IMG/VR virus record: IMGVR_UViG_2585427739_000003
Reading direction: 5' to 3' (one strand)
From: a virus
Taxonomy: Duplodnaviria; Heunggongvirae; Uroviricota; Caudoviricetes
Length of the DNA: 28,490 nucleotides
Shown here: positions 14,361 through 19,149 of the stretch, one piece after another
Layout: each line of letters opens with the position of its first letter
Position numbering within the stretch: the first letter of the stretch is position 1
Notes under the pieces: model-generated
What the model was told of the DNA's origin: nothing
Databases searched by the model: none
What the model saw: the letters and a program-made list of their open reading frames with translations, nothing else
Program-made: the position numbers and the translations under genes

Positions 14361-14885
14361 ATGTACTCCAATGAAGAAGCCACCGACATAGCCTCCTCCA
14401 TTCATAGTGAAACTATTTTCATCTACCCAGTAATGAATTCTTTGTAGAGTTGTGATCAATACAACTCACTAATGGAGAGGCTTTTTCCACACGTTGGGCA
14501 AGTTTCCTGTTTGATTTACTGGACACTATAGAAGGACAGAATGCCTTCATCACTCGAATAACATCAATTAAGGAGGTTCAACATGTTTCATTCCACAAAT
14601 CATCAGGCTGTAATTATGGCTGCATCAGCTTGTGCCACAGACCTTTTCCGCTTCACTTTGAGCCTGATTCATTTCTACCTGACCGGCTCGCCTCTATCTT
14701 TTTAATCCCCGCTTTATCCAAATTGCATTGCCAGAATGCCGACAACAGACTGACATTCAAATCCTGACTACCTCCGATAGGCTGAGCATCCACCTATATA
14801 GTTTTAATTTTCATCAATCCATTTAACTATCGTTTAATTGTTGTCACATAGGATTCTGCCGTTTTTAACAATGCAGGATAATAAG

Positions 14886-15179
14886 ATGAAAAAAATGTTG
14901 TTTTCTGCCGCTCTGGCAATGCTTATTACAGGATGTGCTCAACAGACGTTTACTGTTGGAAACAAACCGACAGCAGTAACACCAAAGGAAACCATCACCC
15001 ATCATTTCTTCGTTTCGGGAATTGGACAGGAGAAAACTGTTGATGCAGCCAAAATTTGTGGCGGCGCAGAAAATGTTGTTAAAACAGAAACCCAGCAAAC
15101 ATTCGTAAATGGATTTCTCGGTTTTATTACTTTAGGCATTTATACTCCACTGGAAGCGCGTGTGTATTGCTCACAATAA
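14886..15179 (+). CDS. bor: Bor outer-membrane lipoprotein
   Basis: MKKMLFSAALAMLITGCAQQTFTV...LEARVYCSQ closely resembles lambda Bor, with lipobox LITGC. On the strand opposite the late genes, next to Rz, as in lambda. Confidence 0.9.
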   Translation: MKKMLFSAALAMLITGCAQQTFTVGNKPTAVTPKETITHHFFVSGIGQEKTVDAAKICGGAENVVKTETQQTFVNGFLGFITLGIYTPLEARVYCSQ

Positions 15180-16620: not shown

Positions 16621-16836
16621 TTACTCTCCCCGTGCCGCCTTACGACGGTCCTCTCTGATTTTGAAATACAGGTTAGTCAGATATGTCAGCAGCCCAAACA
16701 GCAGACTCCCCAGCACGCCTATTGCCGCCCACTGAGACGGGGAAACCCTGTCCAGCAACTGCAGGAACCAGTAGCCCGTTCCCACCGCTGACGTGGTGTA
16801 TGACACACCTGTTGTGATTTTTTCCATCTGGTCCAT
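16621..16836 (-). CDS. Class II pinholin (phage 21 S-like) with a dual-start motif
   Basis: [71 protein letters not shown] resembles S21. Met1 and Met4 give the holin/antiholin pair. Confidence 0.85.
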
Positions 16837-17143: not shown

Positions 17144-17332
17144 TCACTCCGGCTCAGTTGCACCACTGACCACCACATCACCTTCTGCTGCAATCGCCTG
17201 CATCAGGGTATAAGGGGTTATGGCCACCGGACTACCAAACGGCTGCCAGCCCTCTTTCAGTTTATGTGTCAGCTTTTCCGCAAGATCTGACGGCGGCGCC
17301 GCCCTGACAACATCATAGTGTTTAAATGCCAT
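17144..17332 (-). CDS. Hypothetical small protein upstream of the holin
   Basis: ORF track 17144..17347; start placed at the internal Met MAFKHYDVV... Function unknown. Confidence 0.45.
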   Translation of the reverse strand: MAFKHYDVVRAAPPSDLAEKLTHKLKEGWQPFGSPVAITPYTLMQAIAAEGDVVVSGATEPE

Positions 17333-17591
17333 GGTTCTTTCCACCATCTGAAAAATAATTCTTTAAAATACCTGACATGTAATACAGAAAAAACACAAAA
17401 CCATACCTTAAATAAAAACCTGATTATCAAGCAGATATGCATGGATAAACTACAAGACGAGATATAAACCACCCTGTATTTAAATAAACAATAAACAACA
17501 TCAGAAAAATAATTCTGCTCTATGGTTTAATTCAAAAATATCATTTATACTTTTCAGAACATCACCAGCAAGGCATAAACAAGGAAAGTAA

Positions 17592-17927
17592 ATGAAGTGG
17601 ATTGTGATTGATACAGTTATCCAGCCATCATGCGGAATATCTTTTTCAGTCATATGGAGTAAAATAAAATTAATAATCTGGTATCAATCGGATGCTTTCT
17701 TACCTCCTGAAAGTATATTTACACTGACTCACACAGGCATCATGCTCAATAACAAAGTGCTACCTGTAACCATTTACAACGTAGTACCATTCAATAAAAC
17801 ATTCTGGAATTTAATCAAAAACAGCCAGGAATGCCCTACAAATACAGATAACGTAATGAATGAATGCTTTAATAACCGTTGCACTCTGCAAATATGTCCT
17901 TATGGACTAAAACAACAAAGTCCATAA
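17592..17927 (+). CDS. Hypothetical protein in an AT-rich cargo island, Cys-rich C-terminus
   Basis: 111-aa ORF with AAGGAAAG ribosome-binding site before the ATG, AT-rich upstream region with promoter-like hexamers, and a perfect hairpin downstream. It is transcribed against the late operon. Confidence 0.5.
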
Positions 17928-18374
17928 GGAGTTTACTCACATCTGACAAAATCAATATAAACAGCCCCTCCGGAGAGGGGCTGGAGAGTGGCGCTATGTG
18001 CCATTGCATGGTGCCGGGTGCCTCCCGGTGAATTCAGTACCAGCACCTGAATTCGCGATTATCCCATATACCTACTCGCTGATTGCCCCTCCGCACAGGG
18101 GGATTCACCATGCCAGTTTCTTTTAACAAACTCCCCGCAAACCAGACAACAGTCAACCGCCTGAATTGTGAAGTATTTAAAAATTTCTCCCGCTAACTGA
18201 TACCCGGCTAACAGTCTGGCGTTTTCTTTTTCAGCAACGGGAAAGCAACAACCACCACCCCCGCCACCAGCACACCGTCAGCCAGCACTGACATTATCCG
18301 GCTGCTGCAATGCCACTCACAAAAACAGTAAGCAATCACTTTTTACCGTAACAAGTGATAATCCAGATATGTAT

Positions 18375-18728
18375 CTACCCCAGATGAGTAATCCGAAGTT
18401 CATCCATACCACAGGTACTGGCTATTCTGTTGTACTCCTGAACAAGAGCAAATAATTCTGAATTAGCAACCATGAACTCATCGCAAACCCTCTGTATAGC
18501 ATCACTATTCAGAATAATAACGTCTCTTCCCGAAAGACGATCAGGAGTACAGAACAAAACTGTCAAACGGCTGAAGGCCTTTGCTCGTCCTGCATTGACT
18601 ATATCAATACGCTGCCTAAGGATGAAACACCCCGACGCCTCATCAATATTCACTCTACCCACACCATATGAATGATAAATATTTAATGCTGAAAAAACCA
18701 TTAGACCGTATAACAAACACTCAATCAA
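18375..18728 (-). CDS. Hypothetical protein (weak gene model)
   Basis: 117-aa ORF with a TTG start and no convincing ribosome-binding site, in the position occupied by stx in Stx phages. Confidence 0.25.
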   Translation of the reverse strand: MIECLLYGLMVFSALNIYHSYGVGRVNIDEASGCFILRQRIDIVNAGRAKAFSRLTVLFCTPDRLSGRDVIILNSDAIQRVCDEFMVANSELFALVQEYNRIASTCGMDELRITHLG

Positions 18729-18841
18729 TACTTAACAGAACTTTTATTTTTGACAAACATAAAATATTTTCAACAATATCCTGAGCCAGGTATATTTCAG
18801 TATAAGGCTCTGCCGGAAGGAATCTGGAAGAATGAATATAG

Positions 18842-18915
18842 CGCGCTGTACTGGATTCGAACCAGTGACCGATTGCTTAGAAGGCAATTGCTCTGTCCGG
18901 CTGAGCTAACAACGC
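18842..18915 (-). tRNA. tRNA-Arg (anticodon UCU), 3' CCA not encoded
   Basis: Hand-folded cloverleaf: 7-bp acceptor stem GCGTTGT/ACAGCGC, GTTCGAATCC T-arm, anticodon loop CTTCTAA. Resembles the argN/argO tRNAs of lambdoid Stx phages. Confidence 0.75.
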
Positions 18916-19015: not shown

Positions 19016-19091
19016 TGGTGGCCCTTGCTGGATTTGAACCAGCGACCTGGCGATTATGAGTCGCTCGCTCTCACCACTGAGCTAAAGGGCC
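19016..19091 (-). tRNA. tRNA-Ile2-like (anticodon CAU), with encoded CCA
   Basis: GGCCCTTTAGCTCAGTGGTGAGAGCGAGCGACTCATAATCGCC...GGTTCAAATCC...GGGCCACCA resembles E. coli tRNA-Ile2 (ileX) and the ileZ tRNA of Stx phages. Confidence 0.8.
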
Positions 19092-19120: not shown

Positions 19121-19147
19121 ATTCCGCAATAAAAAACCCGCTCGGCG
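19121..19147 (-). terminator. Candidate tR' terminator downstream of the late promoter
   Basis: Minus strand reads AACCCGCCGCCGAGCGGGTT followed by TTTTTTATT, about 90 nt downstream of the Q stop. Confidence 0.5.
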
Positions 19148-19149
19148 GC

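Follow-up and report, generated by a model that had tools for sequence, protein, structure and literature searches.

The AT-rich stretch that lies between the late antiterminator gene Q and the lysis genes of the window (the whole 28,490-nt stretch of DNA analysed here, virus record IMGVR_UViG_2585427739_000003) carries an open reading frame for a protein of 111 aa, and we conclude with high confidence that this frame is iraL, a moron of lambdoid prophages whose product is an IraM/IraL-family anti-adaptor. The gene itself is already known: it is named in RefSeq, and its function was published in 2014. The first-pass annotation of this DNA, which was made from the letters alone, had described the product as a Cys-rich protein belonging to no recognisable family, and this was wrong; the protein matches a curated NCBIfam family and a solved structure (8TWD), and 110 of its 111 residues are identical to those of IraL from E. 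coli CFT073.

17592..17927, + strand: iraL coding sequence with an ATG start, 111 aa (identified by NCBIfam, PDB, identity to CFT073 and a structural model)

When the 111-aa protein was used in a profile search, NCBIfam NF007393 ("anti-adapter protein IraM") was hit with an E-value of 4.9e-48, the score being 162 bits against a curated whole-protein cut-off of 121 and the match covering residues 1-110. A phmmer search also retrieved the IraM crystal chain 8TWD_A, i.e., residues 1-78 of IraM bound to RssB, with an E-value of 9.2e-32. In the AlphaFold2 model, which has pLDDT values of about 76-96 across residues 1-80, this region is a domain composed of a beta-barrel plus a helix (strands at 2-66, helix at 69-77), and Foldseek placed the model on 8TWD_A with a TM score of 0.90, an rmsd of 1.3 A and 65% identity. 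A Pfam scan at E-values up to 10 gave no family for the frame and none for IraM of E. coli K-12 either; the blank is thus a gap in that library and not a sign of novelty, and the family assignment therefore leans on NCBIfam, PDB and pairwise identity.

Within the family, the frame is assigned to iraL by its sequence and its location. The window protein (WP_023281677.1) carries Met at position 89, and this L89M is the sole change from CFT073 IraL (WP_000871291.1). At the level of DNA, 670 bp that take in the upstream region are 99% identical to CFT073, and the 336 nt of the coding sequence contain one mismatch; iraL has been defined by a coding identity of at least 95% to the CFT073 gene (PMC4045071), and the window gene falls within this definition. 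It is also situated in a prophage, with the gene order of the CFT073 potB prophage, and not at the iraM locus adjacent to e14.

Given that stx occupies the same slot in related phages and that Pfam returns no match, one might suppose that the frame encodes a new Cys-rich toxin, defence protein or virulence effector outside the known families. The matches to a curated family and a solved structure, the near-identity to a characterised protein, and the absence, by eye, of a signal peptide or a transmembrane-like segment leave practically no room for such an effector. A second possibility arises from the fold, because the second-best Foldseek match was PmrD (4HN7), which is the one other protein sharing it: the product could be a PmrD-like connector, whose task would be to shield the phosphorylated form of the response regulator PmrA and not to block RssB. 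The N-terminal domain (residues 1-80) indeed has the unusual fold of PmrD (TM 0.73 to 4HN7; also 2JSO and 2RQX), and the precomputed annotation of the protein database tags the protein with PF11183, which we take to be the PmrD family; this tag was not reproduced in our Pfam scan at E-values up to 10. The identity to PmrD is nonetheless 14-21% as against 62-65% to IraM, PmrD has no Cys4 tail and acts on another response regulator, and the CFT073 protein binds RssB and stabilises RpoS (PMC4045071). We hence regard a PmrD-like role as highly improbable.

The nearest relative with a function of its own is IraM of K-12 (YcgW/ElbA), which shares the family, the fold and the Cys4-CPYG tail with the window protein and is 62% identical to it; the window protein has four extra residues (QQSP) at the C terminus. 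In K-12, Mg2+ starvation induces IraM, and the protein makes contacts with both domains of RssB (PMC4045071, PMC10844676), and RefSeq as well as NCBIfam label the window protein "IraM", so that it could in principle be a functional orthologue of K-12 IraM, with PhoP-mediated induction upon Mg2+ starvation and binding to both RssB domains. Against this, the K-12 gene resides in the chromosome next to e14 and not in a prophage late region, its upstream region does not align with that of iraL, its coding DNA is 71% identical, and the RssB-contacting residues that differ between the two proteins are those facing the C-terminal domain and the linker of RssB. Other conditions of expression and another pattern of interaction have also been described for IraL (PMC4045071). 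An orthologue of iraM in this functional sense is therefore quite improbable, and we proceed with the assignment to iraL.

IraL was found in the potB island of uropathogenic CFT073 as an IraM homologue with 58.9% identity (PMC4045071; Hryckowian et al., mBio 2014). [quoted passage not shown] In the IraM-RssB structure, 14 residues of IraM contact RssB and form three clusters (PMC10844676); our alignment to IraM indicates that 10 of the 14 are identical in the window protein, distributed as follows.

Cluster I, contacting the RssB N-terminal domain (I4, I6, W22, K26, I42): five of five kept in the window protein
Cluster II, contacting the RssB C-terminal domain (T13, C14, F18, W30, L75): T13S and L75I in the window protein
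Cluster III, contacting the RssB linker (I61, Y62, H63, I64): H63N and I64V in the window protein

[quoted passage not shown] With a single residue distinguishing it from the CFT073 protein, the window allele would be expected to share its function, and the following course of events can be proposed. A lysogen in exponential growth would make IraL from its sigma-70-type promoter, and IraL would bind the N-terminal receiver domain of RssB on the face meant for RpoS. Structural evidence obtained with IraM indicates that RssB bound to an anti-adaptor is unable to pass RpoS on to ClpXP (PMC10844676); by analogy, RssB bound to IraL would not deliver RpoS (sigma-S), the half-life of which would then be longer, and RpoS would build up in unstressed, growing cells. 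In this respect, iraL illustrates clearly how a moron in a prophage rewires a central stress pathway of its host, by making RpoS more stable during growth.

The part of the protein beyond the RssB-binding domain contains the four C-terminal cysteines that had been pointed out from the sequence, and they are C81, C92, C97 and C102; a fifth, C14, sits in the N-terminal domain. Residues 81-105 constitute a Cys4 tail following the pattern C-P-x9-C-x4-C-x4-C-P-Y-G, in which C81, P82, C92, C97, I101, C102, P103, Y104 and G105 are invariant among 16 close relatives. Searching 1.84 billion representative proteins with a profile gave 93 relatives, and all 31 sequences of the resulting alignment (the window protein and 30 full-length relatives) match NF007393. 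When the alignment was made of 52 sequences, reaching down to ~20% identity, C81 and C97 were conserved in 100% and C92 and C102 in 98%, and the four tail cysteines were the top-ranked conserved positions of the whole protein; a small number of sequences depart from this pattern and have three or four cysteines at altered spacing.

In the crystallographic work on IraM, which gave the only crystal structure of the family, residues 79-107 were removed, the tail was called less conserved and flexible, and full-length IraM was noted to be proteolytically unstable (PMC10844676). AlphaFold2 gave no confident structure of the tail, with pLDDT below 50 when 16 sequences were supplied and 55-70 when 52 were; a PDB search with the 35-aa tail alone returned nothing below an E-value of 0.8, and the motif was undiscussed in the literature that we searched for IraM together with zinc or cysteine. 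We tentatively suggest that the Cys4 tail may be a small Zn-binding or redox-sensitive module that governs how stable or active the anti-adaptor is, by which a metal or oxidative-stress input could reach the stabilisation of RpoS. This is a possibility to which we give less than even weight. The role of the tail could be worth experiment, as could the expression of the allele described below, which has a deletion in its -35 region and is common in ST131-like prophages.

The gene is carried by a compact island, the edges of which were set by alignment with an iraL-less prophage of strain SF-468 (L004) having both flanks. Homology to SF-468 ends at 17333/17334 and restarts at 17960, which delimits an island of 626 bp.

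17334..17959, no strand assigned: AT-rich cargo island (moron) with iraL (SF-468 comparison and a GC content of 0.319)

The left edge adjoins the start codon of a DUF1737 fragment, and the right edge falls within the U-tail of an sRNA gene of the STnc100 family. That this stretch is far more AT-rich than its surroundings, as had been noticed at first sight, is borne out by the GC content in 300-bp windows, which is 0.31-0.35 at 17300-17900 against ~0.50 in the flanks. With a GC content of 0.319 against 0.50, the island is the lowest-GC region in the window; only 0.02% of the 626-bp windows in the 28.5 kb are as GC-poor, and all of these are at the island locus. The base composition of the genes gave the same picture, in that GC and GC3 of the frame are 0.345 and 0.339, while those of the neighbouring phage genes are 0.47-0.54 and 0.47-0.65. 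The island is missing from the prophages of SF-468 and J-8, which share both flanks or one flank with the window. We thus have an insert amid conserved phage genes, with deviant GC, absent in close relatives and with a transcription start mapped in CFT073, all of which supports its description as an independently transcribed AT-rich cargo gene (moron) placed in the slot between Q and the lysis genes on the strand opposite the late operon. Lambda bor and the iss-type morons are likewise AT-rich, self-transcribed, expressed in the lysogen and opposite to the late operon, although their proteins and functions are unrelated to those of iraL. As a separate observation, an iss gene is present in the same window, 2.4 kb from the island.

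The genes surrounding the island in the late region are the following.

19235..20056, - strand: late antiterminator Q gene (Pfam PF03589 Antiterm, E 6e-55)
19135..19154, - strand: tR'-like intrinsic terminator directly downstream of Q (terminator scan and sequence)
19016..19091, - strand: phage tRNA with a CAT anticodon, Ile according to RefSeq
18841..18915, - strand: phage tRNA Arg-TCT
17147..17332, - strand: DUF1737 fragment, the left flank of the island (Pfam DUF1737, E 4e-17)
16621..16836, - strand: class II holin, with which the lysis genes begin downstream of the slot (Pfam Phage_holin_2_1, E 4e-32)

The holin is of the P21 type and is a 216-bp CDS in RefSeq, and further late genes on the - strand of the window are those for DUF1327/YdfR and lysozyme. 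The late genes (Q, holin, YdfR and lysozyme) are hence all on the - strand, so that iraL does run opposite the late operon as first described. Its position had also been given as between the promoter pR' and the holin: the island is indeed downstream of Q, tR' and the tRNAs and upstream of the holin, whereas a promoter scan of the gap after Q found no consensus-like pR'. A frame of 117 aa at 18375-18728 on the - strand was also considered and is probably spurious, having no family match and being left unannotated by PGAP.

The order of genes in CFT073 is as in the window, namely, Q, the tRNAs, DUF3927, STnc100, iraL on the opposite strand, DUF1737, holin, YdfR and lysozyme; in CFT073 an IS200 lies between Q and the tRNAs. 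The two prophages differ in their head and terminase module, which is of the HK97/P27 type in the window and lambda-like in the potB prophage of CFT073. The DUF1737 fragment is the leftover N-terminus of a SASA esterase gene of the nanS-p type, described in RefSeq as "incomplete, missing C-terminus"; in one of the two copies of JJ1886 (copy A), an intact SASA esterase gene of 1,854 bp follows iraL at the place where the window has the fragment.

The suggestion that this slot is the one in which lambdoid phages carry stx and other cargo proved to be apt. The order in the Stx2c phage 2851 is Q, tRNAs, stx2cAB, STnc100, an IraM-like ORF, nanS-p and S; the IraM-like ORF, of 108 aa, is a homologue of the window gene located directly after stx2cB. 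The IraM-like ORF of such Stx2c phages and of O157:H7 shares the slot and the orientation of the window iraL at a protein identity of 74%, is likewise convergent with STnc100, precedes nanS-p and is unannotated in many phage records. Where the slot lacks iraL, it still keeps STnc100 and holds other cargo, which is a second copy of STnc100 in SF-468 and two TolA-domain genes in J-8.

The sRNA gene faces iraL from the opposite strand in the window.

17953..18142, - strand: STnc100-family sRNA gene (Rfam RF02076, 131.4 bits against a gathering score of 47, E 6e-30)

This convergent pairing of an iraL-type gene with STnc100 was found in four other loci, in which the gap between the two genes is short.

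CFT073: 25 nt between the iraL-type gene and STnc100
JJ1886: 25 nt between the iraL-type gene and STnc100
E. albertii: 25 nt between the iraL-type gene and STnc100
Stx2c phage 2851: 7 nt between the IraM-like gene and STnc100

An independent paper has placed STnc100 at 75 nt downstream of stx2 (PMC12370729). The fixed convergence, with 3' ends 7-25 nt apart, may have regulatory consequences, a question that could be worth experiment. In the prophage state, tR' and the terminator of STnc100 would be expected to shield iraL from antisense transcription, and polymerase modified by Q would probably read through iraL in antisense during lytic growth.

As to the end of the iraL transcript, the perfect hairpin that had been noticed downstream of the frame is present and has arms of 12 bp with no mismatch, and it spans the stop codon.

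17897..17930, + strand: perfect 12-bp hairpin over the 3' end of the iraL coding sequence, stop codon included (folding)

The arms (17897-17908 and 17919-17930) enclose a loop of 10 nt, with a dG of -17.5 kcal/mol and a z-score of -4.3. Its role as the terminator of iraL is doubtful, because no U-run follows it (only GUUU) and because its 3' arm is absent in the homologue of phage 2851. A stronger, GC-rich hairpin further downstream, at 17962-17983, was also rejected as an iraL terminator, since its U tail lies on the - strand only and inside the STnc100 match; together with that U tail, this hairpin is the intrinsic terminator of STnc100.

At the other end of the gene, a strong ribosome-binding site and a promoter-like AT-rich upstream sequence had been proposed. 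The former is clearly there, AAGGAAAG being located at 17581-17588 and 3 nt before the ATG. The latter corresponds to the CFT073 promoter mapped by 5'-RACE and in that sense stands, while the window copy has lost 1 bp from what is probably the -35 hexamer.

17526..17531, + strand: degraded -35 region, TTTAAT (alignments to CFT073 and JJ1886)
17546..17551, + strand: -10 hexamer, TATACT, 7 nt upstream of the position aligned to the CFT073 RACE start
17559..17591, + strand: 5' UTR of iraL, beginning with ACATCACCAGCAAGGCATAAACAAGGAAA and including the ribosome-binding site AAGGAAAG (transcription start in PMC4045071)

The published 5'-RACE start of CFT073 iraL reads ACATCACCAGCAAGGCATAAACAAGGAAACCA (PMC4045071), and this sequence aligns from 17559 of the window onward. 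The promoter region is ~96% identical to that of CFT073, with the -10 hexamer, the region of the transcription start and the ribosome-binding site alike in the two; the TATACT itself is identical in CFT073 and in both copies of JJ1886. Besides the deletion, the window differs from CFT073 at three bases of the promoter and 5' UTR; the deletion itself removes one C (GGTTTA[C]ATTC in CFT073) between 17529 and 17530. As a result, the probable -35 hexamer TTTACA, which matches the consensus at five of six positions and which we take to be the published -35, becomes TTTAAT with a spacer of 14 nt. A consensus promoter scan accordingly gave no promoter at the mapped position in the window allele, and another promoter-like site remains whole at 17485-17513 (TAAACA-17-AATAAT). 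Given the loss of this one base, the window allele may be expressed more weakly than, or differently from, the CFT073 copy.

The same deletion is present in E. coli JJ1886 (ST131). Its second copy (copy B, at 2.17 Mb) has a promoter identical to that of the window including the deletion and lies in a prophage with the same HK97/P27-type architecture, although it encodes L89, i.e., the CFT073 protein, where the window has M89. A mutated predicted -35 has been reported for "iraL2" of JJ1886 (PMC4045071), and we infer that copy B, and with it the window allele, corresponds to this iraL2.

It might then be argued that the window gene is iraL by descent and nevertheless a silent or decaying copy, in which the promoter has been knocked out by the deletion and the ORF is carried along without being expressed. 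Besides the deletion itself, the truncation of the adjoining nanS-p gene is indicative of local decay, the allele is a minority form, and the expression of iraL2 was left open in the original study (PMC4045071). The ORF, however, is intact with one conservative substitution, and the -10 hexamer, the 5' UTR and the ribosome-binding site are kept; the AT-rich upstream DNA could serve as an UP element, the second promoter-like site is intact, and the allele is unchanged across many ST131-type genomes. We consider a silent copy unlikely on balance, while giving it appreciable weight, and retain the reading of the frame as an intact iraL.

In terms of distribution, there are 1,431 complete E. coli genomes in which RefSeq calls the ORF "anti-adapter protein IraM", a genome being counted when it contained at least 80% of an 801-bp query; about a quarter of the complete E. 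coli genomes (~1,430 of 5,426) carry iraL. A distant search with the ORF only separated three classes: iraL itself at an identity of at least 95% (~1,400 genomes), the type of O157:H7 and the Stx2c phages at ~78%, and the chromosomal iraM at ~71%. The exact promoter allele of the window was the best match in 166 of the 1,430 genomes with the promoter region. In the other 1,264 the best match was inexact, and among the matches listed all span 61 nt, which indicates, on the sequence, a promoter form without the deletion. The gene has been reported to be enriched in uropathogenic E. coli and in Shigella (PMC4045071).

The neighbor of iraL, the gene for the 111-aa anti-adaptor of the IraM/IraL family, was found to be a small RNA gene:

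17953-18142, minus strand: STnc100-family sRNA homologue (Rfam RF02076, 131 bits), convergent with iraL

The GC hairpin at 17962-17983 is the terminator of this sRNA, and the pairing of iraL with STnc100 was found again in CFT073, JJ1886, E. albertii, and Stx2c phage 2851. Neither iraM nor iraL appears in the 2026 Pas-sRNA preprint, although STnc100 is treated there. We also noticed that RefSeq places a partial "hypothetical protein" pseudo-CDS (about 17998-18123) on the strand opposite the STnc100 match; this pseudo-CDS facing the sRNA is probably spurious. In the iraL-less prophage of strain SF-468, furthermore, the stretch found in place of the iraL island (L004:2935-3650) holds a second STnc100 copy with a better score (161 bits); two tandem STnc100 genes are thus present in SF-468. 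Two STnc100 genes were likewise seen in the E. albertii locus.

In terms of the cargo carried between Q and the lysis genes, the following were identified in the window and in related phages:

Window 17147-17332, minus strand: DUF1737 ORF, the residual N-terminus of a nanS-p-type SASA sialate esterase gene
L006:5001-5327 (phage 2851; FM180578.1 around 24233-24562), plus strand: intact IraM-like ORF of 108 aa, 74% identical to the window protein
L005:1863-2837 (strain J-8 prophage): a pair of genes whose products have TolA C-terminal domains, with STnc100/DUF3927 on one side and the holin gene on the other

The body of the nanS-p gene is deleted in the window and in CFT073, whereas copy A of JJ1886 retains it intact, adjoining iraL (L007:387-2240). 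In phage 2851, the IraM-like ORF lies directly 3' of stx2cB, and such an ORF is left without annotation in many of the Stx2c and Stx2a phage records among those listed. In the J-8 prophage, on the other hand, the TolA-domain genes replace both iraL and nanS-p of the iraL-bearing prophages, and this cargo might interfere with Tol-dependent entry of phages or colicins.

While a word-based search gave roughly 20 near-identical IraM/IraL clusters, the profile search (alignments A6 and A7) retrieved 93 relatives (clustered at 50%), of which 48 had E below 1e-10, and the family is therefore wider than the former search showed. The C-terminal four-cysteine segment (Cys4-CPYG tail) is also retained in one Citrobacter homologue (54% identity).

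Between Q and STnc100, three further features were considered:

19128-19234, minus strand: short leader between the Q stop codon and a terminator (19154-19135)
19016-19091, minus strand: tRNA with a CAT anticodon
18375-18728, minus strand: 117-aa ORF that opens with TTG, in the interval from the tRNA-Arg gene to the DUF3927 gene

The leader, which gave a weak, sub-threshold match to Rfam "Trp_leader", is probably the counterpart of the short transcript that runs from pR' to tR' in lambdoid phages; a simple scan found no consensus-like pR' promoter there. The tRNA was called tRNA-Met by ARAGORN and tRNA-Ile in RefSeq, and we take it to be a likely lysidine-modified tRNA of the ileX/ileZ type, which is typical of the tRNA clusters in Stx phages. 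The 117-aa ORF has no Pfam or NCBIfam match, is unannotated by PGAP in matching genomes, and is probably not a gene.

Elsewhere in the window, additional accessory genes were recognized:

About 14885-15178, plus strand: iss/bor-type serum-survival lipoprotein gene, opposite the late genes
About 21918-22073, minus strand: hokD type I toxin gene
Right end: ydfA-ydfB-ydfC-dicB cluster, adjoining the cI/cro-like switch

The iss/bor-type gene constitutes a second moron in a low-GC patch (0.39-0.43), flanked by the Rz/Rz1 genes on one side and by HNH endonuclease and terminase genes on the other. Both hokD and the ydfA-dicB cluster were transferred from the RefSeq annotation of near-identical prophages, and a sok RNA match adjoins hokD in CFT073.
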